Positions 24,650 through 42,217 of a stretch of 64,000 nt of DNA are shown in pieces (the first letter of the stretch is position 1; every line of letters begins with the position of its first letter). The stretch is from IMG/VR virus record IMGVR_UViG_3300012983_000030; one strand, 5' to 3'. A model generated the notes under the pieces. It saw nothing but the letters and a program-made list of their open reading frames with translations, was not told where the DNA came from and did no database searches. Source of the stretch: a virus. Lineage: Duplodnaviria > Heunggongvirae > Uroviricota > Caudoviricetes. A program made the translations under genes and the position numbers.

Positions 24650-24672
24650 AATTTTAAAAGGAGTGTTATATA

Positions 24673-24933: not shown

Positions 24934-24951
24934 AAAATTATTATTTAAGAA

Positions 24952-25038
24952 GGGCTTGTGGCGGAACAGGTAGACGCTGCAGACTTAAAATCTGTTGTCC
25001 GCAAGGACGTGCCGGTTCGATTCCGGCCTAGCCCACCA
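24952..25038 (+). tRNA. tRNA-Leu(TAA): tRNA-Leu (anticodon TAA), type II; second copy
   Basis: Anticodon arm GCAGA-CTTAAAA-TCTGT, variable-arm hairpin GTCCGCAAGGAC, T-arm CCGGTTCGATTCCGG, CCA encoded. Confidence 0.6.
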
Positions 25039-25056
25039 TTTAATGAAAGATGCTAA

Positions 25057-25296
25057 ATGCAAAAATGTAAAATACGATTACAAAATGATATAGAATGGGA
25101 AGAATATGAAAATGAACAAAATGTTCATCCTATGATATTAGTACAATCGTGGGTAGAAAAGCATCCTGAATGGTATGCAAAAAGTGTAGTTTTAGATGGT
25201 GATAGAGTATTATTTGTGGAAGTTTTAGATGAAGATATAATTCGTACTTTTCAAGTTACAGTGACATTTTCATTTAAAACGGTTGAAATAAGTTAA
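25057..25296 (+). CDS. hypothetical protein
   Basis: 79-aa ORF with a weak Shine-Dalgarno site. Confidence 0.3.
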   Translation: MQKCKIRLQNDIEWEEYENEQNVHPMILVQSWVEKHPEWYAKSVVLDGDRVLFVEVLDEDIIRTFQVTVTFSFKTVEIS

Positions 25297-25303
25297 TCTT
25301 ATG

Positions 25304-25419
25304 CGAGAAGTAGCTCAGTCTGGTAGAGCACGTATTTGTATTTAGTCCTAAATACGTACAGCATTATATTTTTTTGCTTGGTAAGCACGTGGTCATTGGT
25401 TCGAATCCAATCTTCTCGC
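25304..25419 (+). ncRNA. tRNA-like gene with a canonical 5' half and T-arm but an extra internal segment of about 42 nt
   Basis: 5' CGAGAAG-TA-GCTCAGTCTGGTAGAGC, T-arm ATTGGTTCGAATCCAAT, acceptor 3' CTTCTCG. The insert holds a 7-bp hairpin (CGTATTT/AAATACG) and a T-run. AGCACGT recurs on both sides of the insert. Confidence 0.4.
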
Positions 25420-25442
25420 ACTTTTTTAGAAAGGAAACATTA

Positions 25443-25700
25443 ATGAAATTATCTAAATCTGAAATTGAAAGAAAAGTAAAAGAAATATTAAGTGAAGTTT
25501 TAGTAGCACCTAAAGAATCAATTACTTTAAATGCAAATTTGGCACATGATTTAGGAGCAGATAGTTTAGATAATGTTGAAATAGTAATGTATTTAGAAGA
25601 AGAATTTGGGTATATTATTCCAGATGCGGTTACAGAAAAATTAGAAACAGTAGAAGATATTATTAATTATATAGAAGAAAGAGAAAAAAATGAAGTCTAA
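25443..25700 (+). CDS. acpP: acyl carrier protein
   Basis: Classic phosphopantetheine-attachment motif LGADSLDNVEIVMYLEEEFG. Shine-Dalgarno AAAGGAAA. The upstream part of the listed ORF (from 25374) overlaps a tRNA-like gene and is not coding. Confidence 0.7.
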   Translation: MKLSKSEIERKVKEILSEVLVAPKESITLNANLAHDLGADSLDNVEIVMYLEEEFGYIIPDAVTEKLETVEDIINYIEEREKNEV

Positions 25701-25891
25701 AAAAAATGACAATAACAGTTAAAATTCCAAAACCAAGGGATTTTAATTTAATAAATGCTCAAATAAAAGGATTGTTAAGAACAAAAGTAATTAGAAATAA
25801 AAAGAAAGACGTAAAAAAATATAATTGGAAAAAAGATATGTCTTATTATTTAAGTATTTTAACAATAAAGTATTTTAATAATAAGACATAT

Positions 25892-25968
25892 GCCTGATTA
25901 GCTCAGTCTGGTAGAGCATCTCGTTTACACCGAGAGGGTCGGCAGTTCGAACCTGTCATCAGGTACCA
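25892..25968 (+). tRNA. tRNA-Val(TAC): tRNA-Val (anticodon TAC)
   Basis: D-arm TAGCTCAGTCTGGTAGAGC, anticodon arm TCTCG-TTTACAC-CGAGA, CCA encoded. Confidence 0.7.
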
Positions 25969-26108
25969 TTTTTAATTTTAACTTCTTGTGGTGTAAGCGA
26001 TAGGTTTAATAATACTATAGCTCTTTTATTAAATCCTAACGGTAGTAGCTTAATTCCCACTAAGGTTTAGGTACAAGTGCAAGTCTTGTCAAGAAGAACA
26101 TTTTTTAT

Positions 26109-26188
26109 GGGGTGTTAAATCTGGTTCTAGAACAGATTGCTTAGGATGTAGGTCCAAGATAACGTGTGAAAATCATGTGGCCCCGCCA
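26109..26188 (+). ncRNA. non-canonical tRNA-like or structured RNA of about 80 nt (GGGGTGT...GGCCCCGCCA)
   Basis: Terminal helix with a CCA-like end followed by a T-run; internal palindromic hairpin AATCTGGTTCTAGAACAGATT; no canonical T-loop. Confidence 0.25.
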
Positions 26189-26277
26189 TTTTTTATAATA
26201 TTAAATATAATATTGTTTTACTTTCTAAATAATGTATATTAAATAATAAAAGTTGAAATTATTTAGAAAGGTTTAAA

Positions 26278-26445
26278 ATGACATATCAATATTATTCCAG
26301 AAAAGAATTACAAGAAATTTATAATACATCACAAAAGACAGAAAATCTCACATTTTCAACGTTTTATATTAGAGTACATCAATTAAATTGGTCTATTGAA
26401 AAAGCATTAACTTATTATGTAAAACCATTAAAAAGGAGAAAATAG
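26278..26445 (+). CDS. small hypothetical protein
   Basis: 55-aa ORF whose stop abuts the start of the next gene. Confidence 0.25.
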   Translation: MTYQYYSRKELQEIYNTSQKTENLTFSTFYIRVHQLNWSIEKALTYYVKPLKRRK

Positions 26446-26622
26446 ATGGCAAACTCTAGACAAGAATATAACTATGAGATTTTAAAAGTTCTGAAAGAAA
26501 ATATTAAAAAATATCCAGATTATAGATTTATCCAATTACTTTGGGCATTAAATATTATCGATGGCTCAGACAAGTTTTATGAAGAATCGAAAGAAACTTT
26601 AGATTATATAAAAGATAAATAA
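26446..26622 (+). CDS. small hypothetical protein
   Basis: Shine-Dalgarno AAAGGAG upstream; 58 aa. Confidence 0.3.
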   Translation: MANSRQEYNYEILKVLKENIKKYPDYRFIQLLWALNIIDGSDKFYEESKETLDYIKDK

Positions 26623-26700
26623 AAAATATTATTCCTGTTTTACTTTTTTATAAATTCATAGTATATAAAAAGTATTCTATAAATAAAAAAGGAGAAATTT

Positions 26701-28266
26701 ATGAATACTTATATTGATGTTTTAGGTTTAGATAAAAATCACACTGAAATTAAACCAGCTCGTGTAAAGACAAATAGTTTTATCAAAGCTCAAACTAATA
26801 AAACGTTTACTGAAAACGGGGCTTTGACTAATGCTTCTTCTTTATCTAAAATTGTTGATTGGTTTTTTCATGGAGCTGCTCTTCGTAAAGCTGAAGAAAA
26901 ACGTATTTTAAATTTATTCACAGATGCATTTAAAGAGAATCCTACTAGTGCTTTACGTATTTTATTTTATATTCGTGATATTCGCGGTGGACAAGGCGAA
27001 CGTCGTACTTTTAGAATTTGTTTGCAATGGCTTGGAAATTATGAAGCAGAATGGTTATCAAAAAATCTATCATTGATTTTTGAATATGGTAGATGGGATG
27101 ATTACTTTGTATTATTTGATACTAAAATTGCTAATACAGTAATTGATTTCATTGGAAGCCAACTTGAAAAAGATTTGAAACATCATGTTAATAATGAAAT
27201 AAGTAATCTTTCGTTGTTAGCAAAATGGATGCCTTCTGAAGCAAGTGTTAAGTATGAAACAAAAAAATATTATAATGCTTTACTTAAAACTGGTAAATTT
27301 GGTACAAAACGTAATTATCGTAAAGCAATCAGTATTTTAAGAAAAGACTTAGATATTGTTGAAAGAAAATTATCTGCTAAAGAATACTCTAATATTGATT
27401 ATGAAAAATTACCTTCATATGCAATGTTAAAATATTCTAAGCCTCGTGTTTATAATGGTATGGAAGGTAGCTTTTTAAGAAATGATAAAAAGCGTTTTTC
27501 TGAATACTTAGATAAAGTAAATAAAGGTGAAACAAAAATAAACGCTAAGACTTTATATCCATACGATTTAGCACGTGAATATACTGATAATCTTTATTGG
27601 AAGTGTACTTATAAAAAATCTGAGTTAAATGCTACTATTGAAGCTCAATGGAAAGCATTACCAGATTATGTTCCAGAAATAAACGGATTAGTAGTATGTG
27701 ATACTTCTGGTTCAATGAATGGTTTGCCTATGGCAGTAGCTATGTCTTTAGCAGTTTATATTGCAGAAAGAAATAAATCTGAAATTTGGAAAAATTATGT
27801 AATACCATTTTCATCTTCAGCTAAATTTATGGAAGTATCTGGTGAAACACTTCTTGAAAAATTAATATCAATATATACTGGTGATTGTAGTAATACAAAT
27901 TTACAAGCAGTATTTGATTTAATTTTAAATAGAGCTAAGGCAGCAAATGTATTGGCAGAAGACATGCCAAAACAATTGTTGATTATAAGTGATATGGAAT
28001 TTGATTCTACTTCATTTGGATATACAAATTATGAAAAAATTAAACATAAGTATAAAGAGAGTGGATATGTTTTACCAAAATTAGTTTGGTGGAATGTAGA
28101 CAGTAGAAATACACAAACTCCAGTTACTATTGATGATAAAAATAATTTGTTATTGTCTGGATCATCTCCTTCTTGCTTAAAAGTAGCTTTATCTGGAGAG
28201 TTTGATATAGTTGAAACAATAAATAAAATTATTGAACAAGAACGATATAGTTGTATAAATTATTAA
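26701..28266 (+). CDS. DUF2828-like protein with a C-terminal von Willebrand A (MIDAS) domain
   Basis: MIDAS motif VVCDTSGSMNG; N-terminal region ILFYIRDIRGGQGERR; 521 aa. Confidence 0.5.
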   Translation: MNTYIDVLGLDKNHTEIKPARVKTNSFIKAQTNKTFTENGALTNASSLSKIVDWFFHGAALRKAEEKRILNLFTDAFKENPTSALRILFYIRDIRGGQGERRTFRICLQWLGNYEAEWLSKNLSLIFEYGRWDDYFVLFDTKIANTVIDFIGSQLEKDLKHHVNNEISNLSLLAKWMPSEASVKYETKKYYNALLKTGKFGTKRNYRKAISILRKDLDIVERKLSAKEYSNIDYEKLPSYAMLKYSKPRVYNGMEGSFLRNDKKRFSEYLDKVNKGETKINAKTLYPYDLAREYTDNLYWKCTYKKSELNATIEAQWKALPDYVPEINGLVVCDTSGSMNGLPMAVAMSLAVYIAERNKSEIWKNYVIPFSSSAKFMEVSGETLLEKLISIYTGDCSNTNLQAVFDLILNRAKAANVLAEDMPKQLLIISDMEFDSTSFGYTNYEKIKHKYKESGYVLPKLVWWNVDSRNTQTPVTIDDKNNLLLSGSSPSCLKVALSGEFDIVETINKIIEQERYSCINY

Positions 28267-28288
28267 GTTCTAATAAAAAGTTTAGAGT

Positions 28289-28462
28289 CACCAAAAAACA
28301 TACAGCAGACACTATATGAAAAATATTTGTATTTAACATAGGTCGGTATTGTTTAGATAGTTAAGATTTGTTCTGATTATCAATGAGTGACAATACGAGA
28401 TGAGGACCCGGATGCGTTTTTTGTTAAGCGTGACTCTAAAGCGGGTCCTCATTTATTTTAAA
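28289..28462 (+). ncRNA. structured non-coding element with nested inverted repeats, including a GC-rich hairpin with T-run
   Basis: Outer inverted repeat TTTAGAGTCAC...GTGACTCTAAA (11 bp, 130 nt apart); inner GATGAGGACCCG...CGGGTCCTCAT followed by TTTATTTT. Confidence 0.3.
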
Positions 28463-28473
28463 AGGAATATAAA

Positions 28474-29025
28474 TTGAAAAAGTATAAAACAAAAATAAAA
28501 AATTTAAAAAATACAATAAATAATACTTCAAAAGAACTTGCCTGGAATGTAGACATAGCTTTTGCTGAAATGTTATATCCAGTTATTAAACAGTTTAAGA
28601 AAGATGCATTAAAACACATTGATTTTTCACAATATGGTATGTATAAATATGAAAAAATATTATGTAAATATTTAAAAAATAAAAAAGTGTATGAATATTT
28701 TCATAATAAAGGTAAAACTAGATTTGAAAATAAACTCAATGAATTAGAAGATTGTTTGAATGATATTTGTATAGAAGATACTAAAGAACACAGAACAAAA
28801 TGGAATTTAAAAGAATTATTAGAAGTAAAATATAATCATATTCCTATTAAAAAACCAAATGTTGGATTATTATATCGTATGGAAATCAAGCCAGAATATA
28901 AAGAAAATGATATAAAAAATACAAAAATAATACAATATAATGCAAAGATACTTAAAAAATGCTATAAATGGCGAAAAAAATGCTTATATTGGTTTATTGA
29001 TAATTTACATATTTTATGGTGGTAA
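28474..29025 (+). CDS. hypothetical protein
   Basis: 183-aa ORF. Confidence 0.4.
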   Translation: MKKYKTKIKNLKNTINNTSKELAWNVDIAFAEMLYPVIKQFKKDALKHIDFSQYGMYKYEKILCKYLKNKKVYEYFHNKGKTRFENKLNELEDCLNDICIEDTKEHRTKWNLKELLEVKYNHIPIKKPNVGLLYRMEIKPEYKENDIKNTKIIQYNAKILKKCYKWRKKCLYWFIDNLHILWW

Positions 29026-29028
29026 AAA

Positions 29029-29313
29029 ATGGATATTGTTACCTTAATGAAGTTACATAAAACTACTTTTAAAAATAAAGAATTATTAGATACAACTAAT
29101 GAATGCGCATGCTGTTCTTGTAATCATTTTTTAAAAACTTCAGACATTAAAGAATGGACAGATAATGCTTTAACTGCAATATGTCCATTATGTGGAGTAG
29201 ATGCTATAATTCCTATAACTGTTGAAAATCCTATAACTGAAGATGATTTGGAAAAATTATATAAATATTATTTTACTAATTTAGAAAAAGAATTTAAAAA
29301 TAATAAAAAATAA
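29029..29313 (+). CDS. hypothetical Cys-rich protein
   Basis: CACCSC...CPLC pattern. Confidence 0.4.
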   Translation: MDIVTLMKLHKTTFKNKELLDTTNECACCSCNHFLKTSDIKEWTDNALTAICPLCGVDAIIPITVENPITEDDLEKLYKYYFTNLEKEFKNNKK

Positions 29314-29510
29314 CAGTTCTATAAAACATGATGAATATTTTAGTGACATATTTTTACCCTTATTATCAACAACCTATAAACGGTTGATGGGTAGTTATTA
29401 CTTAAAATATTATCATAAGTAGGAAGTGCCCATCAAAAGAAATTTTGTGGGTATTTTTTTATTTTTGTGTTTTACATTTATTATTTTAGGTATTATATTT
29501 ATATTGTTTT

Positions 29511-29587
29511 CGGAATGTAGCTCAGCCTGGTAGAGCGCTAGTTTTGGGTACTAGATGTCGTGAGTTCAAGTCTCGCCATTCCGACCA
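29511..29587 (+). tRNA. tRNA-Pro(TGG): tRNA-Pro (anticodon TGG)
   Basis: Acceptor CGGAATG/CATTCCG, anticodon arm CTAGT-TTTGGGT-ACTAG, CCA encoded. Confidence 0.7.
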
Positions 29588-29592
29588 TTTAA

Positions 29593-29678
29593 GGGTGAGT
29601 CGCATAGAGGCTTATTGCAGCGGACTGTAAATCCGCCGTCTTCGGACATCGGTGGTTCAAATCCATCCTCACCCACCA
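29593..29678 (+). tRNA. tRNA-Tyr(GTA): tRNA-Tyr (anticodon GTA), type II
   Basis: Acceptor GGGTGAG/CTCACCC, anticodon arm GCGGA-CTGTAAA-TCCGC, long variable arm, CCA encoded. Confidence 0.7.
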
Positions 29679-29682
29679 TTAT

Positions 29683-29756
29683 TGGAGGATCGTCTAAAGG
29701 TAGGACAACGCACTTTGACTGCGTTAATATTGGTTCGATTCCAGTTCCTCCAGCCA
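29683..29756 (+). tRNA. tRNA-Gln(TTG): tRNA-Gln (anticodon TTG)
   Basis: Acceptor TGGAGGA/TCCTCCA, anticodon arm ACGCA-CTTTGAC-TGCGT, CCA encoded. Confidence 0.65.
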
Positions 29757-29776
29757 TTTTTTAATAAAGGGGGTTA

Positions 29777-30812
29777 TATGCGAACAGTAGGCACGTCTGT
29801 ATATGGATTAATTTGTCCAATTTTTAAAGAAGGTGATGATTTATGCCAAAAAATTTGTGATACACTTTTAAATAGTGAATTAGAAATAAATGATAGAGAT
29901 ATTTTAGGTATTACAGAATCTGTGGTCGCTAGAACTGAAGGAAATTATGTTACTGTCGATGAAGTAGCAGAATCAGTTAAAAAGTTATTTAATAATCCAA
30001 TAGATATTTTAGTATATAATCCGATTTATTCTCGTAATAGATTCGCAATGATTTTAAAAGGCATTGCAAGAGCAGTTACAGGAACTGTCTATATAACAAT
30101 GCTTAATATTGATGAAGTTGGTAATGTATTACAAAATCACCCTTTTACTGGTTTGAATTATGATGAATATTATAAATCAATTGTTGAAGCAGAAGGTAAA
30201 AAGTGTTATATTATATATCAAAATGAATCAGTAGGTTATTTTGATAATGTAATAGATTGTCAAATACATCAAAATACATTCGATGTAACATTAAAAGACA
30301 TTTGTTCAGATAAATGCGAATATGGACTTTATGGTTCAAATAAAGCAACAGAAGAAAAATTAAAGTTATTTCCATCTAAAAAATTTGCTCAAGAACTTAT
30401 TAGTAATATTCAAATTACTATTTATGGCAAAGTCGGTAAGAAAATTGAAGTAATGGTATATGGGGATGGTTGTTTTAAAGACCCTGTTGGTGGAATATGG
30501 GAATTAGCAGACCCTGTTGTAAGTCCTGCTTATACAGATGGATTAAATGGAACTCCTAATGAGTTGAAACTCAAATATTTAGCAGATAATGATTATAAAG
30601 ATTTGAGTGGAGACGAATTAACAAATGCTATTAAACAAAGCATTAAAACAAAAGATAAAAATCTTGTTGGCAACATGGCATCACAAGGAACAACACCGAG
30701 AAGATTAACAGATTTATTAGGTTCTTTAATGGATTTAACATCTGGAAGTGGTGATAAAGGTACACCTGTTGTTTATGTCAAAGGTTATTTTGATAATTTG
30801 AGTACTTATTAA
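29777..30812 (+). CDS. CofE-like (F420-0:gamma-glutamyl ligase family) amino-acid ligase-like protein
   Basis: ILGITESVVARTEGNYV resembles the CofE active-site strand. Shine-Dalgarno AAGGGGG. The start was moved from 29652 because the upstream part overlaps tRNAs. Confidence 0.45.
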
Positions 30813-30822
30813 GGAGGTCTTA

Positions 30823-31026
30823 ATGAAATTAAAGTATATAATACTTTTTATTTTGATTATTTTATTGTTAATGGCTTGTTCTCATGAAAATACTTCTTTA
30901 GATTTAGATAAAGAATTACGTTGTCAAGGTTATATTCGCACTGATTATACTGAAGAAGAAATTTTAAATGAATATTCAAATGTACATGAATGCATACAAT
31001 ATAATAAAAAATTTTATTGCTATTAA
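30823..31026 (+). CDS. small lipoprotein
   Basis: Signal peptide followed by a lipobox (LLLMAC); 67 aa. Confidence 0.4.
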   Translation: MKLKYIILFILIILLLMACSHENTSLDLDKELRCQGYIRTDYTEEEILNEYSNVHECIQYNKKFYCY

Positions 31027-31072
31027 TTTTCTGCTTTTAATTTAATGTAAAATTTGATATATAAATAAATAT

Positions 31073-31150
31073 GCGTCGGTAGCTCAGCCCGGTTAGAGCT
31101 GTCCGCTCATAACGGATAGGTCGTTGGTTCGAATCCAGCCCGACGCACCA
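31073..31150 (+). tRNA. tRNA-Met(CAT): tRNA-Met/Ile2 (anticodon CAT); second CAT tRNA
   Basis: Acceptor GCGTCGG/CCGACGC, D-arm TAGCTCAGCCCGGTTAGAGC, anticodon loop CTCATAA, CCA encoded. Confidence 0.65.
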
Positions 31151-31151
31151 A

Positions 31152-32330
31152 TTATAATAAATTTAAATTAACAATACAAAGTACTAGCTTTTCATTTGTT
31201 TCAACACTACTCTCTAAAGCCCTAGCTAGTACTTTTTTATTTATATCATACCATTTCTTTTTTCTTGCAATTCCTGGAATAGATGATAATACTAATTTAT
31301 CACCTCTTTGTATTTTTCCAATTACTCTTACTAATACCCGTCCAGACAATGCAATTTTACAAGGATTTTCATAATCATTATTACTATTTAAGATAAAACC
31401 AGGTTGACTTGAAATTACTGCAATAGGATCTGAAGAAGCAATGGATATTTCACTATTTTTGCCTATTTTGACTAAAGTTCCAGCAGGATAATTTTTATCT
31501 GCTTCATAAATTTCTGCTAAATCTGCATATTGGGCATATAATGCTGTACCTTTAATAATACTAGAAAAAGTTTTAACGCCTGCTATTGTCTCATCACCAG
31601 TCTTATGAACAACGGCACTGTCATTAGCTTTTCCTGCAAGAGAAGTTGCCCAATTACTCCAATCCATTTGAGATTGATTGATTTGACCATTAGCAACAAT
31701 TACAAAAAATCTTGCTCTTAAGTTATCACCTTGTACTTTAGCTCCACTTTTATGAATGCCATTTTCTGCTGAAGCGTTAGTCATTTGTTGACGAGCAGTG
31801 GAATATCCTGAAGCAGCTCTATCTGAAAATTCACCATTGGTACCAGCTCCATTCGTACCTGTATTGACAATTACACCTCCAACAGTAGTAGATGTTGCAG
31901 GAACATATCCAGCATTCCCTGCTGTTCCTCCAGCATTAACAATAGCAAGATGGTGAGTATGATCCGGTAAACTTTCTTTATATATTTTTCCTAATTCACT
32001 ATCAGATTTAGCTTGTGTAAGATAACTACCGTCTTTTATTGTTGGTACTTTAAATTTTTTATTAGTCGAATCTACTGCAAATTTATTTGTTTGACCATAT
32101 GTATTTAGGTCAGTGGTATATTCGGCATAAGTACAAGTAAGTAATTTTCCAGTTAATAAATAATTATTAAACAGCTCAGAAAATTGAGCTTCTTGATATT
32201 CTGATCCATCACAAGGTAAACAACCAGAAGGAATATAAGAAGAATTACAAATTACTTTAACAATCTGTCCTATAATTTGTATACCATCTGATGTTCCAAA
32301 TATTTTTTTAGTACCTAAATAAACACCCAT
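31152..32330 (-). CDS. tail fiber / receptor-binding protein
   Basis: Gly/Thr/Asn-rich repeats and a VHKTGDETIAGVKTF-type fiber motif. It lies next to another fiber gene. Confidence 0.55.
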   Translation of the reverse strand: MGVYLGTKKIFGTSDGIQIIGQIVKVICNSSYIPSGCLPCDGSEYQEAQFSELFNNYLLTGKLLTCTYAEYTTDLNTYGQTNKFAVDSTNKKFKVPTIKDGSYLTQAKSDSELGKIYKESLPDHTHHLAIVNAGGTAGNAGYVPATSTTVGGVIVNTGTNGAGTNGEFSDRAASGYSTARQQMTNASAENGIHKSGAKVQGDNLRARFFVIVANGQINQSQMDWSNWATSLAGKANDSAVVHKTGDETIAGVKTFSSIIKGTALYAQYADLAEIYEADKNYPAGTLVKIGKNSEISIASSDPIAVISSQPGFILNSNNDYENPCKIALSGRVLVRVIGKIQRGDKLVLSSIPGIARKKKWYDINKKVLARALESSVETNEKLVLCIVNLNLL

Positions 32331-32332
32331 AA

Positions 32333-32638
32333 TTATTCTTCCAGTTTACGAATTTCTTCTCTCCAAGCTTTACGTGTAGCCTTTTTGATTTCCCATTCTT
32401 CTTCAGTATATTCACCGTCTAAATATTTTTGTCCCCAGTAATCTGCCTCTTTTAACAAATATTTTAATTCTAAAATTCTATTTTTCTTTGCTTCTTCTTC
32501 AGTTGGTTTTGGGGTTTGTATAATTTCATAATATGTATCACAATCTTTAAATTCAGCATGGTTTGCATTACACCAAATAGCATATTTAGCATATTCTTCA
32601 TCAGTTAATTTATCTTTGTATAATTTTTTACCTATCAT
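32333..32638 (-). CDS. hypothetical protein (possibly a fiber assembly factor)
   Basis: 101-aa ORF lying between the two fiber genes. Confidence 0.35.
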   Translation of the reverse strand: MIGKKLYKDKLTDEEYAKYAIWCNANHAEFKDCDTYYEIIQTPKPTEEEAKKNRILELKYLLKEADYWGQKYLDGEYTEEEWEIKKATRKAWREEIRKLEE

Positions 32639-32647
32639 TTCTTTATC

Positions 32648-33790
32648 CTAATAACCGCATGCATACCAATGTACAGGACCACCGTCAGTACCTGAACCAC
32701 TTAGACCATGAATATAAAGAGTTACTTTTGAAGTAGTAACAAAAGTTACTCCTGCATTATTAGCTGTATTACCAACAGTCACTCTCATTTCGTTTGCTTC
32801 ACCGTTTGTTACTTCCAAATTACAAATAAAAGTAGGTTTTTGAGTAAATGCTTTCAAAAACGTTAAAGTATTAGTAGTTCCTCTATACCAAGCTGCTGTT
32901 ACACCGCCTTGTTCAATCCAACCATCAGACCAAACTCTATACCAGTTATTACCAGATTTATAGTTTTGTGTAATAACAGCGACTCTATTTGCGGTAGCAG
33001 AAGAAGTAGTAGTAGCTTTAGCAGTACATTTTGGGAAAGACATATTTACTCCACCTGCTGTATCTACCCAAAGATTTAATTGAGCATACTGCATAGTACC
33101 ATTAATACTTCTACCATGATTTATTCCAAATCTACTAGTACCATCTGTTAGCCAATAACCTTCTACTTTACCATAACGCTGACCTTTATTATCATAAAAA
33201 GTCATACCACTATAAGCAGCAGAGGTAGGCGTTGTCATATGATCTGTAAAATGAGTAGCATAATGAGAAATAGTATCTGCATTTGTTTTAATTACTAATT
33301 TGCCTGTCATGGTATCACCAGCTTTTGCTACTTTAGTATTATTTTCAGTTTTAGTAGCAAATTTGGCGTCAGCTTCTATAATGTTATACTTGGCATTTAA
33401 AAGATAATCTATTTCAGCTTGAGTATATGTATTGACTATTAATGATTCTGCTTCGTCTGTAATACTATATAAAGTATTATCATCTTTAGTAGTTAAAGCA
33501 TCATATTCTGCTCTAGTTCCTACCCAATTTTTTATAATTAAGTTTTTATTTGTTTCTACTGTACCAATTGTTTGGTATTGACTGTTTGTATCTTTTTTGA
33601 TACTATTTACATTAAATTTTGGAATATTATTTAAATCAGTATATTCATTAGTAGTAGCAACTTTACTTAATGAAGAAATGTCTGCTTTTTTATCGATAGC
33701 AGACTTTACGGCTTTTTGAGAAGGAATTATATAATCAGAATTAGCACTAAAAGAAGAATCAGTGTCTAAATTTAAATATTTAGTAGTCAT
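32648..33790 (-). CDS. tail fiber protein
   Basis: N-terminus MTTKYLNLDTDSSFSANSDYIIPSQKAVKSAID, paralogous to the partial fiber gene at 1-639. Confidence 0.6.
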   Translation of the reverse strand: MTTKYLNLDTDSSFSANSDYIIPSQKAVKSAIDKKADISSLSKVATTNEYTDLNNIPKFNVNSIKKDTNSQYQTIGTVETNKNLIIKNWVGTRAEYDALTTKDDNTLYSITDEAESLIVNTYTQAEIDYLLNAKYNIIEADAKFATKTENNTKVAKAGDTMTGKLVIKTNADTISHYATHFTDHMTTPTSAAYSGMTFYDNKGQRYGKVEGYWLTDGTSRFGINHGRSINGTMQYAQLNLWVDTAGGVNMSFPKCTAKATTTSSATANRVAVITQNYKSGNNWYRVWSDGWIEQGGVTAAWYRGTTNTLTFLKAFTQKPTFICNLEVTNGEANEMRVTVGNTANNAGVTFVTTSKVTLYIHGLSGSGTDGGPVHWYACGY

Positions 33791-33915
33791 AACATTAAAT
33801 AATCTCTATATTGAAACTTAATATATTATATATGATATATGAACGATTTAATTTAGTTTTTTGTTTTACTACACAAATATAATAGTATAATATAATTGAA
33901 AATAAGGAGTTTGTC

Positions 33916-34308
33916 ATGACACGAATTAATTTAATATCAACAAAAGAATTATCTGATCAACATTTATTAGCAGAATATAGAGAATTACCTCGTGTAATTA
34001 AAGGTGATTTTAATATTAATAATGCTCCAATAAAATATTGTCTCGGTAAAGGACATATAAAATGGGCAAAGTTACATAGTGCTTATTTAATTCTTAGATA
34101 TGATTTAATTTGTCAAGAAATGAGATATAGAGGTTTTACAGTTAATTATCCTTCGAAAGATTTAATTAAAGAATGGGATGGTGGACACATGTATTTTCCT
34201 TCAAAAGAAGATATAGAAGTAAGCAAAAGACGTTTAATAGAAAAATATAAATTAAAACCTAAATGGTATAAATGGACAAATAGAGAAAAACCAAAATATT
34301 TTTCATAA
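33916..34308 (+). CDS. denV: pyrimidine-dimer DNA glycosylase (T4 endonuclease V / DenV-like)
   Basis: N-terminus [27 protein letters not shown] closely matches T4 endonuclease V ([27 protein letters not shown]), including the catalytic N-terminal Thr and the Glu. Confidence 0.85.
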   Translation: [130 protein letters not shown]

Positions 34309-34492
34309 ATTGTGATTTTTTGCTTTACTTTAAATTTTTATATGTTATTATATTTTTTATCGACTATGATTGGTTAAATAAAGGTTCTAAATAATATGAT
34401 GAAAAGTACGATTAAACATTTTTGGCATTGTTTTTACTTCGCTAGAGGCGATGCCGTTTAATTATACCTTTTTGTCGGTATTATTTGGTTTG

Positions 34493-34525
34493 AGCCTCTG
34501 AGATTTTTCAGAGGCTTTATTTTTT
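34493..34525 (+). terminator. rho-independent terminator
   Basis: Hairpin AGCCTCTGA...TCAGAGGCT followed by a T-run. Confidence 0.6.
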
Positions 34526-34601
34526 GGTTAAGTAGCTCAGTTGGTAGAGCAGGAGACTGAAAATCTTCGTGTCGGCGGTTCGATCCCGTCCTTGACCACC
34601 A
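34526..34601 (+). tRNA. tRNA-Phe(GAA): tRNA-Phe (anticodon GAA)
   Basis: D-arm TAGCTCAGTTGGTAGAGC, anticodon loop CTGAAAA, T-arm GGCGGTTCGATCCCGTC, CCA encoded. Confidence 0.7.
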
Positions 34602-34603
34602 TT

Positions 34604-34677
34604 GCACTGTTGGCAGAGAAGTTATGCATCGGTCTGCAAAACCGACAAGAGAGGTGCAATTCCTCTACAGTGCTCCA
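34604..34677 (+). tRNA. tRNA-Cys(GCA): tRNA-Cys (anticodon GCA)
   Basis: Acceptor GCACTGT/ACAGTGC, anticodon arm TCGGT-CTGCAAA-ACCGA, CCA encoded. Confidence 0.65.
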
Positions 34678-34678
34678 T

Positions 34679-34753
34679 GCGATTGTAGTATAATGGTTAT
34701 TATTCCGGTCTTCCAAACTGAGGATGTGAGTTCGATTCTCACCAGTTGCTCCA
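34679..34753 (+). tRNA. tRNA, isotype uncertain (loop CTTCCAA gives anticodon TCC = Gly, or CCA if read with an 8-nt loop)
   Basis: Acceptor GCGATTG/CAGTTGC with G-U pairs, T-arm GTGAGTTCGATTCTCAC, CCA encoded. The anticodon stem is weak. Confidence 0.45.
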
Positions 34754-34755
34754 AT

Positions 34756-34829
34756 AGGGGTTTAGTTTAATGGTAAAACCTTACTCTCCAAAAGTAAAGA
34801 TGATAGTTCGATTCTGTCAACCCTTGCCA
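34756..34829 (+). tRNA. tRNA-Trp(CCA): tRNA-Trp (anticodon CCA)
   Basis: Anticodon arm TTACT-CTCCAAA-AGTAA, T-arm GATAGTTCGATTCTGTC, CCA encoded. Confidence 0.6.
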
Positions 34830-34848
34830 TAAAATAAAGGAATATAAT

Positions 34849-35328
34849 ATGAAAAGAATAAGTAAAATATTAAGTATAAGTCATCAAGAATTGCAAGATA
34901 TAATTGATGTTTCAAATTCATTATCAGATATTTTAGTTAAATTAGGATACAGTCCAAATGGTGGAACAAATTATGTAACTTTAAAGAATAGATTATATAA
35001 TGAAAATTTTGATTTAAAAAAATTATTAGAAAAGCGTAAAAATAATTATAGAAATATTAAATTAAAAAATGCTGAAGAAGTTTTTATACAAAATTCCATG
35101 TATGCAAGACATAATTTAAAAAGAAGAATATTAAAAGATAATTTAATACTATATAAATGTGCTATTTGTGGGCAAGAACCTATTTGGAATGGAAAAGAAT
35201 TAGTATTAGTTTTAGATCACATAAATGGAATAAATAATGATAATAGATTAGAAAATTTAAGATTTTTATGTCCAAATTGTAATGCTCAACAAGATACTTT
35301 TGCGGCTAAAAATAAAAATAAACATTAA
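34849..35328 (+). CDS. HNH homing endonuclease
   Basis: HNH motif LVLDHINGINNDNRLENLRFLCPNCNAQ and an N-terminal DNA-binding region. It lies inside the tRNA array. Confidence 0.75.
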   Translation: MKRISKILSISHQELQDIIDVSNSLSDILVKLGYSPNGGTNYVTLKNRLYNENFDLKKLLEKRKNNYRNIKLKNAEEVFIQNSMYARHNLKRRILKDNLILYKCAICGQEPIWNGKELVLVLDHINGINNDNRLENLRFLCPNCNAQQDTFAAKNKNKH

Positions 35329-35393
35329 CTTTATATTATTTTTGTCATTTCTACGAATAGAAGTATATATCAGTATATATCTGGTCTATTCTT

Positions 35394-35469
35394 GTGTTCG
35401 TAGCTTAATTGGTAAAGCGCTAGATTGTGGTTCTGGAGGATATGGGTTCAAGTCCCATCGATCACCCCA
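35394..35469 (+). tRNA. tRNA-His(GTG): tRNA-His (anticodon GTG)
   Basis: D-arm TAGCTTAATTGGTAAAGC, anticodon arm CTAGA-TTGTGGT-TCTGG, T-arm TGGGTTCAAGTCCCA, CCA encoded. Confidence 0.6.
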
Positions 35470-35477
35470 ATTATTAT

Positions 35478-35550
35478 ATACCCGTGAGTCAAGTGAAGCA
35501 TACGGTTTCCATCATCGTAAGAGTAGGACATCTTCCTGCCGGGTATGCCA
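35478..35550 (+). ncRNA. tRNA-sized (73 nt) non-canonical tRNA-like gene
   Basis: Perfect acceptor ATACCCG/CGGGTAT plus GCCA. The anticodon-like arm ACGGT-TTCCATC-ATCGT has a CCA triplet with T at position 37. The T-arm GTAGG-ACATCTT-CCTGC lacks the TTCGA consensus, and the D-arm is unclear. Confidence 0.3.
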
Positions 35551-35551
35551 C

Positions 35552-35626
35552 AGAGGTATAGTTCAGTAGTAGAACATTGATCCCCAAAACCAAATGTCGG
35601 GAGTTCGAATCTCTCTGCCTCTGCCA
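35552..35626 (+). tRNA. tRNA, isotype uncertain (anticodon loop CCCCAAA)
   Basis: Acceptor AGAGGTA/TGCCTCT, D-arm TAGTTCAGTAGTAGAAC, T-arm GGGAGTTCGAATCTCTC, CCA encoded. The anticodon stem has one mismatch and position 33 is C. Confidence 0.45.
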
Positions 35627-35710: not shown

Positions 35711-36370
35711 ATGTCTGTAACTCATTATGATATTTTAGGAATTAATAAAAATGCTACTTTAAATGAAATTAAAGCGGCTTATAAATCTTTAGCCAAAAAA
35801 TATCATCCTGACATTAATCCAAATACAAGCGATTTATTTAAACAAATAAATGAAGCTTATTCTGTTTTATCTGATTCTGTCAAAAGACATGAATATGATA
35901 GTTTACTTTCTAATGATGATTTAGATATTGAAGATTTAACCGACGATGATTTAGATGCAATAATTTCAAAATTAGAAGAACTTAGAAAAGAAATCTACAA
36001 TAAAGAAAAACAAAAAACAAAATCTAGTTATAAAAAACCAAAACAAGTAACAGAATCTATATTTGATATAGTTAATAATTTTTCTAGTTATAAATTTACA
36101 AAAGGATGCTCACTTTTATGGAATAAAAAAGTAAGTACATTATTTGGAGCATGGTTAATTTTTATATTAGGTACTTTTTATATAACTATAGCAAAGGTTT
36201 TTTGGTTTTTAGCTCCAAAAAATACTAATAAATTCATTTGTAACTGGATTACAGAATTAAAAATTCTTTGTTATCAAGATAAATTGATTAGCACTTTATC
36301 TTGGACTGTCTTTCTATTTATATTGTGGTTTATGAAATTGATATCTAAAATTTTAATGCCTTTTAAATAA
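35711..36370 (+). CDS. DnaJ (J-domain) protein with a C-terminal transmembrane region
   Basis: J-domain: [29 protein letters not shown]; two C-terminal hydrophobic helices. Confidence 0.65.
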
Positions 36371-37638: not shown

Positions 37639-37820
37639 CAAGACTGTTGTTTTGCTTGTATTATTTTTTCTACAGCTTTCTTTTCATAATATTTTCTTTT
37701 ATTCTCTAATATTTTTTGATATTTATCTTCAGAACCTTCTCTAGATTGATTACAAAATTCATTTAATTGTTGTGCTTCATATCTATAATCAGCATATTCT
37801 TCATAACCATTTGTAGACAT
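37626..37820 (-). CDS. small hypothetical protein (the only minus-strand gene in this block)
   Basis: 64-aa ORF with AAAGGA on the reverse strand. Confidence 0.35.
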   Translation of the reverse strand: MSTNGYEEYADYRYEAQQLNEFCNQSREGSEDKYQKILENKRKYYEKKAVEKIIQAKQQSCHTS

Positions 37821-37954
37821 TAAAAATTCCTTTTATTATATTTTTACCATATTATAGAATTTATACTAATTGCATTTTCTAATATGATTTTTTGCTTTAC
37901 AAATCATTTATTTTTATTAAAATAATATAATAACATAATTTATAAGAGGCTTTT

Positions 37955-38341
37955 ATGAAGTTTTCACTATTAGATCAACAAATTAGACGTTGTATAATTG
38001 CAGATTTAATTTCTGTAATACCTTTATATAATGTAAAAAATATAAATGAAAACACAACTTTTCAAATAAATTGGAATTCCTTTTATCTAAAAATAAAAAG
38101 CTTGGATATGACATATTATAATCAAGTTATGCAGATATTAAACAAAATACAAGCCGAATTAGATGTATTTAGGTGTATTCGTCCAGAAATTACTAAAAAG
38201 AATAAAGGAATATACGCTGAATTAAAAAAGAATTTATCAAACGAACAAATCATTACATTAATGAAATTATATAAATACAGTTTAGAATATGTAAAAAGTG
38301 CTTTACCTACTAAAATCAACATAAAATCAGAGATTCTATAA
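37955..38341 (+). CDS. hypothetical protein
   Basis: 128-aa ORF. Confidence 0.4.
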   Translation: MKFSLLDQQIRRCIIADLISVIPLYNVKNINENTTFQINWNSFYLKIKSLDMTYYNQVMQILNKIQAELDVFRCIRPEITKKNKGIYAELKKNLSNEQIITLMKLYKYSLEYVKSALPTKINIKSEIL

Positions 38342-38387
38342 ATAAAGTTTACAGATACTATTTTGTTAATTTTTAACTTTATTTATT

Positions 38388-38873
38388 ATGTCAAAAAAGA
38401 ATCAAAATGTATTACAGGGAACATTATTTCCTGAATACGAGGTCAAACAACCAAAAAAGACCCAGAAAAGACCAAGTGCTGTCAAAAGATTACAAGCAGA
38501 AAAGGCAAAGCTTGAAGAGAAAGTAAGACAGTTAAAGAAAGAAAATGCGAAACTTAAACTAAAAGCAGAAGCTTTCGATGAACTTATTGCTTCATCTAGT
38601 CTCTTTACCACAACTGTGATTGCCAAAAGCTTTGGTTGGTCAGCAATTAGACTGAATCAGTACCTAAATCAAAAGCGAGTACAGTATCAGCAAGGTGAAG
38701 TATGGGTACTTTATGCTAAGTATGCAAATGAAGGGTATACAAGAATTTGCTGGTATGATTATGCCACCGATTCAAAAGGAAAACCTTTGTCTAGAGCGCA
38801 TACTTATTGGACAAGTAAAGGATTACTGTTTATACGACAGCTCCTTAAAGAAGATGGTCTATTAAAAGACTAA
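38388..38873 (+). CDS. KilA-C/antirepressor-like DNA-binding protein (tentative)
   Basis: Basic coiled-coil N-terminus followed by a C-terminal W/Y-rich domain like the C-terminal parts of phage antirepressors. GC content and codon usage differ from the neighbours. Confidence 0.35.
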   Translation: MSKKNQNVLQGTLFPEYEVKQPKKTQKRPSAVKRLQAEKAKLEEKVRQLKKENAKLKLKAEAFDELIASSSLFTTTVIAKSFGWSAIRLNQYLNQKRVQYQQGEVWVLYAKYANEGYTRICWYDYATDSKGKPLSRAHTYWTSKGLLFIRQLLKEDGLLKD

Positions 38874-38972
38874 AACTACAAAAAGCAGGTATTATTACAA
38901 TATCTGCTTTACTTTTTTATGTATTTTACATATAATATATAATGAAAAATAATAGTATAAGGGTAAAATACA

Positions 38973-39362
38973 ATGCAAATAAATAAATTATGCAGATTAG
39001 CAAGAGCTTCGTTAATAGAACATTTATATATACAATATCATTTTTATCAATTAAAATCTATTAAAAATTTTGACATAGGTTTTACAATAAGGTCTAAAAA
39101 GAACAAAATCGGTCCAAATACTGCAGAGGTAGTATTAGCCATTTGTTCGCATTGTCCTAATCAATCAGGAGAAATACTAAAAATCTTAAAAACCTACTTA
39201 GAAAAAACATTAGATATAAACTTTGCTTTTAAAAAAACAGAGGAAAAATTATCTGATAATATGTCATTAACACCTATAAGTCATTCGGTGGAATATACAG
39301 CAGAAATCACTAAACAGGAATTAGAAAGTATATACAATACAGTTACCACTTTGGAGAATTAA
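38973..39362 (+). CDS. hypothetical protein
   Basis: 129-aa ORF. Confidence 0.4.
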   Translation: MQINKLCRLARASLIEHLYIQYHFYQLKSIKNFDIGFTIRSKKNKIGPNTAEVVLAICSHCPNQSGEILKILKTYLEKTLDINFAFKKTEEKLSDNMSLTPISHSVEYTAEITKQELESIYNTVTTLEN

Positions 39363-39364
39363 TA

Positions 39365-39820
39365 ATGTATCCTATAAAAAACATTAAAAAATATCTTTTG
39401 AATTTTATAAACGATAGAATATATAAATATATACTATATAATTCTGTATACGCTGAAATTATTACAAAAAGAAATGAATATAGAATATCTATAAATGTTT
39501 TAGATACTACATTAGGTATATGGAATAAAAAGACTCAAAAAGCAATAGAAACTGACTTTAATACTATATGTAGTAAAATAACCGATACTTTTTCTATAGA
39601 GTTTGAAAATACTATAACTGAATCATACATAGAAGACTTAGGAAATGTAAAAACTCATATTAATGAAATAAAAGTGCATACTAGATTATCTAAACCCTTA
39701 TCTAGAAAAGAATTTAAATTATTACCCGTTTTATCTAAAATAAATAAAAACATAGACTTAAAAGAATATAGATATATGTATTGGACACCTTTATTAGAAA
39801 GGACACAATCATGGATATAA
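39365..39820 (+). CDS. hypothetical protein
   Basis: 151-aa ORF. Confidence 0.4.
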   Translation: MYPIKNIKKYLLNFINDRIYKYILYNSVYAEIITKRNEYRISINVLDTTLGIWNKKTQKAIETDFNTICSKITDTFSIEFENTITESYIEDLGNVKTHINEIKVHTRLSKPLSRKEFKLLPVLSKINKNIDLKEYRYMYWTPLLERTQSWI

Positions 39821-40389
39821 ATAAACTATCAAACGCACTACGTAGAAGATTAGCTATATCAGTATACTTAGAAAATGAGTGTATTGATGCTTTACCTACA
39901 GATAGAGATACAAATAACATAAATATATCTTTCTGGATACATAAGACAAGAAGAGATAATAAACGACCCGTATATAAATTAGGAATACATTTAGAATTAC
40001 CTAGACATCATGAGTATTTTAGTCCAGCAAATAAAAACACGTGTGAAAAAATAAAAAATATTTTATATAAGAAATTAAAACAAGAATATAAAATACAATT
40101 AGATATAAACAATGCAGTAATACTAAATACAAGTACACTATTTCACGATAAAATAATATACAGTATTTATACTAAGTCATTTACATATAATAAAATAAAA
40201 CAACTATATACATATCTAAAACTAATACGTGAAACAGATAAACATAATGAAAGCATGCAAGCTAAATATGATCGCTTAACTACACTAGAATTATACGAAG
40301 TAATAGCAACAATAATGCCAAACAGCAATAATATCACTAATGAAGATACTAATGCTATTCTAACGGGATTAGATAACTACTTTGCATAA
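39811..40389 (+). CDS. hypothetical protein
   Basis: Start at ATG 39811 with AAAGGA upstream. The ORF track began it at 39781. Confidence 0.4.
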   Translation: MDINKLSNALRRRLAISVYLENECIDALPTDRDTNNINISFWIHKTRRDNKRPVYKLGIHLELPRHHEYFSPANKNTCEKIKNILYKKLKQEYKIQLDINNAVILNTSTLFHDKIIYSIYTKSFTYNKIKQLYTYLKLIRETDKHNESMQAKYDRLTTLELYEVIATIMPNSNNITNEDTNAILTGLDNYFA

Positions 40390-40989
40390 TAGGATATACT
40401 ACTAGTACTTTCTTACTGACTATTGCTGTGTATATACATACTTACTGACTTTTGCTACAATATTTATGACACTTTACTTACTACGGCTATATATACATCT
40501 TGTTGTCTGCTTTTGACATCTTCTTCTTATTTTTCTGCTGACCTTCTTACGACTTTTCTATTTTCTTTCTAACTTTTCTCTCTTCTGTTTACTGCTGTTT
40601 ACTGACACCTCCTACTGGGTTTTGACTGGCTGCCCTGGTCCCTATATGTAAAGGGCCCGCCCCCGGGGGTCCCCTGGCTGGGTATGGGTCTTTTTAGGTC
40701 CTTATATGTAGGAATCCATATAATTGCTGTAGGAGTCTGTCTTATATTCTGGTTATAAATTATATATGATTTAGGAATCTGTATTCCTGTGGTCAAAAAA
40801 AGTATGTTTATGTGAGTGTTTCGGAATTAGGTAATCGGTAGTCTAATAGTCTACAAATATTCAGCCTGATTATACAGTCTAATTGTTTATGTATAATCTA
40901 AACCTGTAAATGACAAAAACTAAAGTGAAAGGTAAACATGATGTAAATGAAAAAAATATTTTCTCTGTTATTATAAAACTGTCTCGTTG

Positions 40990-41034
40990 TAAATAAACAA
41001 CCTATTTCTTACTAGAGGTAGGTTGTTTTTATTT
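40990..41034 (+). terminator. terminator hairpin fused to a conserved 20-mer (repeat copy 1)
   Basis: Stem AACAACCTA / TAGGTTGTT and a T-run, followed by ACGTAAAGGCCAAC. Confidence 0.45.
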
Positions 41035-41160
41035 TATACCTATACGTAAAGGCCAACTTAATTATGCAGTCTAATTTATTTAGTATATTCTATAATCATA
41101 AAATATAGGCACAGCTGAAAAGTGTATTTGTATTTTATATTACACATGATTTTTCTCAAG

Positions 41161-41215
41161 ATAACCTATACTAAATAAGTGTAGGTTATTTTTTTATTCG
41201 CACGTAAAGGCCAGC
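41161..41215 (+). terminator. terminator hairpin fused to a conserved 20-mer (repeat copy 2)
   Basis: Stem ATAACCTA / TAGGTTAT and a T-run, followed by ACGTAAAGGCCAGC. Confidence 0.45.
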
Positions 41216-41254
41216 CTAATTGTACAACTTAATATAATTGATATATAATAAAGG

Positions 41255-41289
41255 TATAATAAGAAAACAATAAGTTTAATCTTATTATA
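41255..41289 (+). repeat. stem-loop repeat 1 (stem TATAATAAG/CTTATTATA, loop AAAACAATAAGTTTAAT)
   Basis: Read directly from the sequence; the loop sequence is conserved across all three copies. Confidence 0.6.
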
Positions 41290-41374
41290 GATAAAAAAAT
41301 TATAATAAAGTGTTTTAATGTTCAACTTAATTATAATATATGATCAACTTAATAAATATATATTATAATAAAAC

Positions 41375-41409
41375 TATAATAAAGAAACATTAAGTTTAAC
41401 TTTATTATA
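41375..41409 (+). repeat. stem-loop repeat 2 (stem TATAATAAAG/CTTTATTATA, loop AAACATTAAGTTTAA)
   Basis: Read directly from the sequence; the stem covaries with the loop unchanged. Confidence 0.6.
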
Positions 41410-41500
41410 AAATATAAAAACTTCAAAAAATAAATAAATTAAATGACCAGCCTAATAAAAATAATTGATCAACAAAATATTTATAATATATAATAAAATT

Positions 41501-41533
41501 ATAAATAAAAAACAATACGTTTAATTTATTTAT
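41501..41533 (+). repeat. stem-loop repeat 3 (stem ATAAATAAA/TTTATTTAT, loop AAACAATACGTTTAA)
   Basis: Read directly from the sequence; the stem covaries with the loop unchanged. Confidence 0.6.
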
Positions 41534-41692
41534 AAATACGAATCCTCACCAACCTAAATTATACTATACACCAACCGAATTTATATACCATAATACAACT
41601 ACATATTGAGTATAAAATATGTGGTTATACTATAGTATATATTCGGACAATATACTATAGAATTGTAAACCTAACTTTAAAGGAGATAAATC

Positions 41693-42034
41693 ATGACAAA
41701 AGCAAAATCATTACAAGAAGTTAAACAATTACGTGAAGCAAACAAACCGGCATTGTTTAATATGGCAGTTGCATTAGATGTAGTTAAAACAACTGCTCCA
41801 AAGACTAAAGGGACTGGTGTATTGTCAACCTTTAGTACAGATTTGATTAACTTGTTTAAAGAAGCTGGAGCACAACTTGCAGTCAATCAAGTAGTTGCAG
41901 CATTCAAAGCAAATGATATAGAAGTGACTTCAAAACAAGTTGCAGATAGATGTTGGTTGCTTGCTAAGAAAGGTATCTTAGAGAAAGGCGACGCTAAAGG
42001 TACTTATGTATATAAGAGCGACGCTCAAGCATAG
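41693..42034 (+). CDS. hypothetical protein, first gene downstream of the control region
   Basis: Strong Shine-Dalgarno AAGGAG. The 113-aa product is rich in A/K/V. Confidence 0.5.
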   Translation: MTKAKSLQEVKQLREANKPALFNMAVALDVVKTTAPKTKGTGVLSTFSTDLINLFKEAGAQLAVNQVVAAFKANDIEVTSKQVADRCWLLAKKGILEKGDAKGTYVYKSDAQA

Positions 42035-42217
42035 CCACCCCCCTACCGCCCCCCTATTAAAAGCGACGCTTGTTATATAAGAGTGCCGCTCATTTTTTAT
42101 TGAAAGGAGTATTGCTATGAAAGAATTACCAAGCATCGCTATTGCATTGGTTGTAGTTAAACCTGGTAGTAGCAACACAACAACAATGATTATCGCAGAC
42201 GAAAGGATAGACATATA

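Follow-up and report, generated by a model that had tools for sequence, protein, structure and literature searches.

The GC-rich segment near position 40650 of this DNA is very probably one part of a larger element: a real, conserved, single-copy cis-acting site that is recognised by protein and heads the early gene module of a group of jumbo phages. As part of the same statement, the property of the tract that has been selected would be its GC-richness rather than its palindrome. In the window (the whole 64-kb stretch of DNA that was analysed), the segment sits in a 1.3-kb gene-free gap, 40390–41692, between two plus-strand gene blocks. The element is built, in this order, from a C-rich short-repeat array, box 1, a 24-nt spacer, box 2 and the GC tract.

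The window comes from a large tailed phage and encodes a tail sheath (2406–4400, minus strand) that is 26% identical to T4-like sheaths, two helicases (14492–17566, replication genes that lie 23 kb from the element) and 23 tRNA genes called by ARAGORN at 21159–35626. Inside this tRNA array, Rfam matches a tRNA at 25304–25419 (116 nt, 46.8 bits) that is missing from the ARAGORN calls and may be an interrupted or unusually long tRNA. Auxiliary genes code for an IMP dehydrogenase/GMP reductase domain protein (18786–19946), a PHROG 850 ‘RNA-binding protein’ (26701–28266), an F420-0:gamma-glutamyl ligase-like protein (29652–30812), a DnaJ-domain protein (35711–36370) and a KilAC/ANT antirepressor-domain protein (38388–38873). 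An ATPase of the window is 30% identical to that of phage G, and the phage has no close cultured relative. Strong AGGAG ribosome-binding sites, seen by direct reading of the loci of its relatives, fit a Firmicutes host.

The window has a GC content of 29.3%, and GGGCCCGCCCCCGGGGGTCCCCTGG is read at 40653–40677. The longest run in the window that consists strictly of G and C is GGGCCCGCCCCCGGGGG (17 nt, 40653–40669), which ends in the perfect palindrome CCCCCGGGGG (40660–40669); at the composition of the window, 5.6 × 10−5 such 17-nt runs are expected in 64 kb. The original prediction of a GC-rich palindrome in an AT-rich genome, extremely unlikely to have arisen by chance, is borne out on both counts. 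The 26-bp GC-only segment that it described is shorter, the strict run being the 17 nt given above; the 26-nt span 40653–40678 includes T at 40670 and 40675 and so amounts to 24/26 G+C. Measured over any length between 12 and 60 nt, the region of the tract is the most GC-rich in the window. Two copies of a direct repeat, GGTCCYTATATGTA, do bracket it as proposed, at 40637–40650 and 40697–40710 (13/14 identity; the second copy, on the plus strand, reads GGTCCTTATATGTA), although the starts assigned to them, 40634 and 40696, were off by 1–3 nt. Independent assemblies (ENA with SPAdes and MEGAHIT, Logan, JGI) agree in every base of a 115-nt core, and the GC stretch is therefore not an assembly artefact.

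Relatives were searched for the element by anchoring on the ATPase gene 9 kb downstream, followed by DNA pattern scans. Absence of the motif from relatives had been put forward as evidence against a function; a homologous element in fact occupies the syntenic place in related genomes. In total 16 instances were found, counting tandem second copies in two relatives. In one of these (L014; copies at 3534–3610 and 3676–3750) a second, more degenerate whole element follows 142 nt downstream, and in the other (L078, minus strand) the element at 5148 has a degenerate second copy at 4465, 683 nt downstream; the element thus appears to be a module able to duplicate in tandem. An exact scan of IMG/VR with the 17-mer gave matches only in unrelated contigs of 51–82% GC.

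What the relatives share is the composition of the GC tract (40653–40682 in the window, plus strand) and not its sequence. The tract is 26–34 nt long with 70–87% GC, in genomes that have 26–34% GC overall, and is usually C-rich on the gene-sense strand. The CCCCCGGGGG palindrome is confined to the lineage of the window, and other relatives have different palindromes or none, so that over the 16 instances this feature, stressed at first, is not conserved. Nor are the flanking repeats. Copy 1 of GGTCCYTATATGTA falls within conserved box 2, whereas copy 2 is lineage-specific: it lies inside a block that is invariant in close strains, is kept in L062–L066 only and cannot be aligned in distant relatives.

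Conservation resides in two boxes at a fixed distance. Box 1 (CCTACTG, 40611–40617, plus strand) was located by alignment A2 and pattern scans and has the consensus aCCTACTGrg, of which ACTG is invariant in 14 of 14 aligned instances (12 genomes, two of them with tandem second copies). The spacer (40618–40641, plus strand) is kept in length and free in sequence, measuring 24 nt in all instances except L016 (22 nt). Box 2 is CCCTATATGTAAAGGGCC (CTATAYGTAAAGGSCC; 40640–40657, plus strand), an imperfect palindrome around TAYGTA (TACGTA). Its family consensus in A2 is cCTAyAyGTAAaGGsCC, with invariant positions T44, A45, G49, T50, A51, A52 and G55. The centres of the two boxes are about 31 nt apart, which corresponds to roughly three helical turns. 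Full box 2 occurs once in the window, and partial copies are found at 41041 and ∼ 41199 in the same intergenic region.

RNAalifold, applied to the relatives, returned only three pairs, all within box 2, with no compensatory change and no conserved fold, and no Rfam family scored above threshold at the element. The lack of a conserved RNA or single-stranded DNA fold, together with the lack of an Rfam match, points to protein recognition of duplex DNA; judged from these sequence comparisons, this is the form in which the element most likely acts. The opposing idea, in which the segment would work as an intrinsic terminator, as a small structured RNA or as a G-quadruplex/i-motif element, could draw on the runs of C and G in the tract, on a T-run that 7 of 13 relatives have 45–55 nt past box 2 and on a weak, sub-threshold Rfam match on the minus strand. 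The remaining relatives have A-runs in place of the T-run. There is no consensus fold or covariation, and the single-sequence fold has a z-score of +1.06 against shuffled sequences. G4Hunter scores over the relatives differ in sign and lie between −2.2 and +1.4 (−0.7 to +1.0 for the tract in the window). We regard the terminator, structured-RNA and G-quadruplex readings as already largely refuted, and this whole class of explanation as highly improbable. A cruciform was also considered and set aside: the flanking inverted repeat that would form it reaches significance in no more than 6 of the 16 instances, and the window lacks it.

The exact bipartite pattern occurs at one locus per 220–263 kb contig in IMG/VR, JGI metagenomes and GTDB genomes, and the whole JGI metagenome collection contains only three exact matches outside the phage family. 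The family consists of uncultivated myoviruses of ∼ 220–260 kb, whose contigs were recovered from rumen and gut samples (IMG/VR, JGI, ENA, GTDB). The full element does not recur upstream of many genes, as a general multi-copy promoter motif would; one locus per genome is expected of a pac site or terminus and not of a general promoter. Its single-copy state fits the class of unique cis-acting sites that comprises packaging sites or termini, origins and recombination sites.

Two members of the family come from GTDB assemblies titled ‘MAG: Bacilli bacterium’ (L079, JAFZWP010000001.1, 245 kb; L080, JAZNQD010000009.1, 249 kb). Within the 8 kb of each that was read, both carry the element with an AT-rich leader. 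The element and the family-like size indicate that they are probably phage genomes rather than bacterial DNA. The conserved first gene described below is present in L080; none was detected in the fetched 8 kb of L079. BLASTN found nothing similar to the region among 50 697 phage records, the protein encoded directly upstream of the gap has no relatives in IMG/VR, and the literature searched holds no description of the phage group or of the motif. The motif and its architecture are accordingly absent from Rfam, the phage records and the literature searched, while the kind of site to which they belong, a unique phage cis-site, is already known.

Upstream of box 1 the picture is reversed. The interval 40400–40607 (plus strand; repeat family D3) is a hypervariable, pyrimidine-rich array of short repeats with C 0.23, G 0.10 and T 0.48, that is, with C in excess of G on the plus strand. 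It contains four additional box-1-like YTACTG motifs (40413, 40442, 40589 and 40599), all on the plus strand and none on the minus strand, against 0.6 ACTG expected. Among five strain-level variants, the array is only 22–57% identical, with insertions and deletions of short repeats, and the sequence on both sides of it is 90–100% identical. Conservation jumps at box 1 from 22–57% to about 100%, and remains there for ∼ 115 nt: the near-invariant block (40608–40725, plus strand) starts exactly at box 1 and shows one substitution, in L063, among the five variants. Eight further relatives (L013, L014, L039, L069, L073, L075, L080 and L084) have different short repeats at the position of the array; extra box-1 iterons are found upstream in some lineages only. 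In most lineages, the array strand has C 0.22–0.40 and G 0.05–0.15, and G exceeds C downstream of the element.

The sharp mosaic boundary at box 1 raises the question of whether the site is a recombination or module boundary, either a conserved linker at which the hyperplastic early region is exchanged between phages or a sequence on which a site-specific recombinase or nuclease acts, without any part in packaging or replication. Gene content downstream does vary between strains, and short, 100%-identical cassettes just upstream assemble separately in several samples. No recombinase or integrase adjoins the site. Moreover, the exact bipartite geometry is maintained across element-bearing lineages whose ATPases are only 66–80% identical, which suggests a selected binding function and not a passive patch of homology. 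A pure boundary function is thus very unlikely in our view.

Downstream of the near-invariant block, an AT-rich leader (40726–41692, plus strand) falls to 10–12% GC and contains promoter-like repeats, terminators, and direct and inverted repeats. Two strong intrinsic terminators on the plus strand (40995–41035 and 41158–41198) each stand ∼ 100 nt after one of two promoter-like 58-nt repeats. The resulting units, 40852–41035 and 41044–41198, are, from their sequence, candidates for short non-coding early transcripts. The second and third promoter-like units start with partial box 2, ACGTAAAGGCC. Further downstream, three direct repeats of ∼ 120 nt (41184–41536; 10–15% G+C) form the most AT-rich part of the region and hold iterated 9-mers of the CAACTTAAT type. 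Within these repeats, 41300–41500 has 10–12% GC, in keeping with an unwinding region. The AT-rich leaders of relatives carry their own lineage-specific iterated 8–12-mers. Directly upstream of the first early gene lies a 26-nt inverted repeat (41582–41641, 85% complementary).

This gene, the first of a block of early-type genes (41693–42034, plus strand), encodes 113 amino acids. An AF2 model of the product (pLDDT 70) has the order helix–helix–helix–strand–strand, with an N-terminal helical part and a C-terminal winged helix. Foldseek relates it to generic winged-helix domains (E about 0.02), it matches no Pfam family, and it is 27–33% identical between relatives. On the strength of the model, the product looks like an autoregulated DNA-binding protein. 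Linkage between this gene and the element was judged on every contig with enough upstream sequence. An HMM derived from A1 placed the gene 430–1800 nt downstream of the element, as the first gene after it and in the same orientation, in the 13 element-bearing contigs tested; L084, a contig recovered by way of this gene, likewise has it downstream of the element. A pattern-based search for loci starting from homologues of the first gene was dropped because the alignment was too divergent. The gene is duplicated in L016 and L067. Downstream of the gap are about 20 plus-strand ORFs of 50–170 aa, whose content differs between strains.

The proximity of the element to these promoters allows a reading in which it controls the first early promoter from upstream: a conserved dimeric host or phage protein would bind the boxes and activate, repress or insulate transcription. 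The binder might be the winged-helix product of the first gene, and the GC tract would be a rigid or non-melting spacer or a barrier to read-through from the genes upstream. Such a role agrees with the imperfect palindrome of box 2 and its distance of three helical turns from box 1, and with the next gene always being a winged-helix gene with its own inverted-repeat operator. In the shortest versions of the region (L069, L075 and L013), the boxes and GC tract lie ∼ 45–75 nt upstream of the first promoter-like −10 boxes. This proximity fits a transcriptional role equally well as it does a genome end. In addition, both partial copies of box 2 (ACGTAAAGGCC at 41041 and ∼ 41199) lie just past an intrinsic terminator and ∼ 36 nt upstream of TATAAT. 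Control of transcription leaves the 30-nt GC tract and the hypervariable array without a reason, and the full element remains single-copy despite the several promoter-like units of the region. The 24–25 nt between the boxes is too long for sigma-70-type spacing. The promoter-near repeats differ between relatives and the boxes do not, which makes the lineage-specific repeats a likelier target of the winged-helix protein than the boxes. We consider a control site possible, if on the doubtful side.

Known early promoters of other phages offer partial parallels. T4-type PeSL cassettes consist of an early promoter plus a stem-loop and are multi-copy, and N4 early promoters need a conserved hairpin of 5–7 bp. 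The region studied here shares with these systems a hyperplastic early region with promoter/terminator mini-units (40852–41198). It differs from the former in that the element is single-copy and from the latter in that a conserved hairpin is absent. Some relatives have, between small early genes, an intergenic repeat family of the form TAAGCACTGAAGATT...hairpin...TTTCTTGAATGCTTA (L016, 1260–1340 and 1540–1620; L039, ∼ 6480), which resembles T4-type mobile promoter/stem-loop cassettes and was not found in the window.

The same AT-rich surroundings could serve a replication origin, at which the boxes would bind an initiator or loader, the GC tract would delimit the site and the 1-kb AT-rich region (10–12% GC) would unwind; initiation might be primed by transcription from the early promoter. 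The layout is reminiscent of iteron-type origins such as lambda ori and plasmid oriV, which likewise combine repeats, an extremely AT-rich region and a GC-rich segment with a neighbouring winged-helix gene behind an operator-like inverted repeat. The site is single-copy, the AT-rich region with its lineage-specific iterated 8–12-mers lies directly downstream, and local C/G skew flips at the element, with C>G on its upstream side and G>C on its downstream side. The flip is local only, since skew at the scale of the genome follows gene orientation. DnaA boxes (TTATCCACA, ≤ 1 mismatch) are absent from 40390–41692, and the whole window has 18 where 23.9 are expected. The upstream array is hypervariable even between strains, unlike functional iterons, and propensity to form G-quadruplexes or R-loops is inconsistent between relatives in both strength and strand. 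A protein of 113 aa is small for an initiator and showed no initiator homology, and the helicases at 14492–17566 stand 23 kb off. Taken together, these observations make an origin unlikely.

The closest architectural counterpart that we found is the left end, or concatemer junction, of phage T7. In the T7 group, the sequence recognised for packaging is found close to the ends of the genome, and maturation begins at the concatemer junction, in the processing of which T7's own RNA polymerase takes part (PMC3276506). The T7 record has a terminal repeat with the GC palindrome CCCCCATAGGGGG at nt 25–39, then a short-repeat array with C 0.31 and G 0.12, then promoters A1–A3. Both phages have a unique locus with a GC-rich palindromic segment, adjoining short direct repeats that are rich in C and poor in G, and then tandem promoters (here promoter-like repeats) and small genes, putatively early ones here, on the same strand; the composition of the array in the window matches that of the T7 SRL. 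The likeness is one of architecture only, without sequence homology. In T7, arrays flank the terminal repeat on both sides, whereas here an array is clear upstream only, and T7, a podovirus, has a genome of 40 kb and encodes its own RNA polymerase. A terminal repeat in the present phage is only putative.

Because array, GC core, promoter-like repeats and early-type genes match the T7 left end in layout, we rank first, tentatively and by analogy, a role of the element as a packaging or concatemer-junction (genome-end) recognition site. It would mark the place at which concatemers are processed and packaged, as a pac site or as the boundary of a terminal repeat, and the DNA to its right would be the leading end, the first to enter the cell. 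A conserved phage protein, either the small terminase or an end-processing factor, would contact both boxes from the same side of the helix. The GC tract may serve as a stable duplex or as the region of cleavage, and the upstream repeats may play the part of the SRL and SRR arrays beside the T7 terminal repeat. The early-type block downstream of the element is hyperplastic between strains and is preceded by promoter-like repeats and terminators. Small early genes behind promoters at the leading end are the organisation of phages with defined ends such as T7, T5, SPO1 and N4.

The assembled contigs were inspected for traces of physical ends. Three full-length contigs had been opened 76.6, 113.6 and 152.3 kb upstream of the element; since these points differ, the assemblies behaved like circles, which is what terminally redundant DNA would give. 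No contig terminates at the site, and the element is internal in every contig of 62–263 kb, in metagenomes that also hold replicative forms. Such read-through, in contigs that are opened at other places, speaks against a simple cos end without redundancy, though not against a terminal-repeat boundary or a pac site. The read-through and the circle-like assemblies fit a terminal repeat or headful packaging alike, and headful packaging, which is frequent among jumbo myoviruses, would yield circular assemblies just as readily with no specific site at all. Among 40 ORFs of the window that were scanned, none matched a terminase.

Smaller contigs break unusually often within about 1.1 kb upstream of the element (84 nt in L084, 90 in L075, 304 in L069, 510 in L065, 672 in L073 and ∼ 1120 in L064). 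The break points are non-homologous: near the element, contig starts and ends never fall on homologous nucleotides. Since the breaks fall in a mosaic, AT-rich stretch, they are attributed to strain heterogeneity or low coverage, and contig ends in this mosaic stretch of 17–19% GC were rejected as a proxy for physical ends. Short contigs that are 100% identical to the window over parts of 37707–40194 were seen in four samples, with ends at 40037, 40065 and 40194 and one start at 40103. All of these points lie in a stretch of 17–19% GC inside ORF 39781–40389, which suggests a mosaic cassette shared by co-occurring strains, or a recurrent coverage gap.

Other packaging systems resemble the element less completely. 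Lambda-type cos (cosQ–cosN–cosB with terminase R sites) is also a single-copy site, and with the GC-rich cohesive ends of low-GC phages it has in common a symmetric core, boxes at helical-turn spacing and a GC-rich tract. In the present family, by contrast, the symmetry of the tract is not conserved, no terminase gene was seen beside the site among the 40 ORFs scanned, and the long contigs run on across it. Nor did the relatives share a nicking region with the two-fold symmetry of cos, CCCCCGGGGG occurring in the lineage of the window only. The pac sites of P1 and SPP1 share with the element heptamers iterated on one strand (here YTACTG, four times) beside a unique core. They differ in that the iteration here is lineage-specific and that the site heads the early genes instead of lying in or near the gene for the small terminase. 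The left end of Pectobacterium phage CBB, with its annotated 22-kb terminal repeat, was inspected as well and has no comparable feature.

A more specific version of the genome-end reading can be formulated: myoviruses of ∼ 220–260 kb, probably infecting Bacilli, would have defined ends like those of the T7 group, and the bipartite site, a GC ‘clamp’ and a fast-changing, telomere-like C-rich array would mark the leading end with its hyperplastic host-takeover module. We hold this version to be distinctly unlikely as it stands. If T7-like defined ends were nevertheless true, the element would represent a packaging or end-definition signal not described before in jumbo phages and recognisable from sequence alone, and if it were an end or packaging signal of any kind, the packaging strategy of the clade could be called directly from assemblies.

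Nearly all knowledge of jumbo phages from gut and rumen comes from metagenomes, and no maps exist of their ends, origins or early programmes. For this family, CYACTG-N24-CTAYRYGTAARGGSC followed by the GC tract provides a sequence-defined, single-copy landmark. It can be used as an anchor for orienting genomes of the family and delimiting the early host-takeover module, and offers a precise target for read analysis of the PhageTerm type and for binding assays.

A second GC island, CCACCCCCCTACCGCCCCCC, is located right after the first early gene (42035–42054). Its G4Hunter score (−2.2) is the strongest of the window, and the island is flanked by the palindromic unit AGCGACGCT at 42017 and 42062, followed by a terminator (region 42017–42100). 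Four relatives have, at the same place, a G-rich island of opposite strand polarity (L013, ∼ 4150; L015, ∼ 500; L019, ∼ 35; L039, ∼ 6090).
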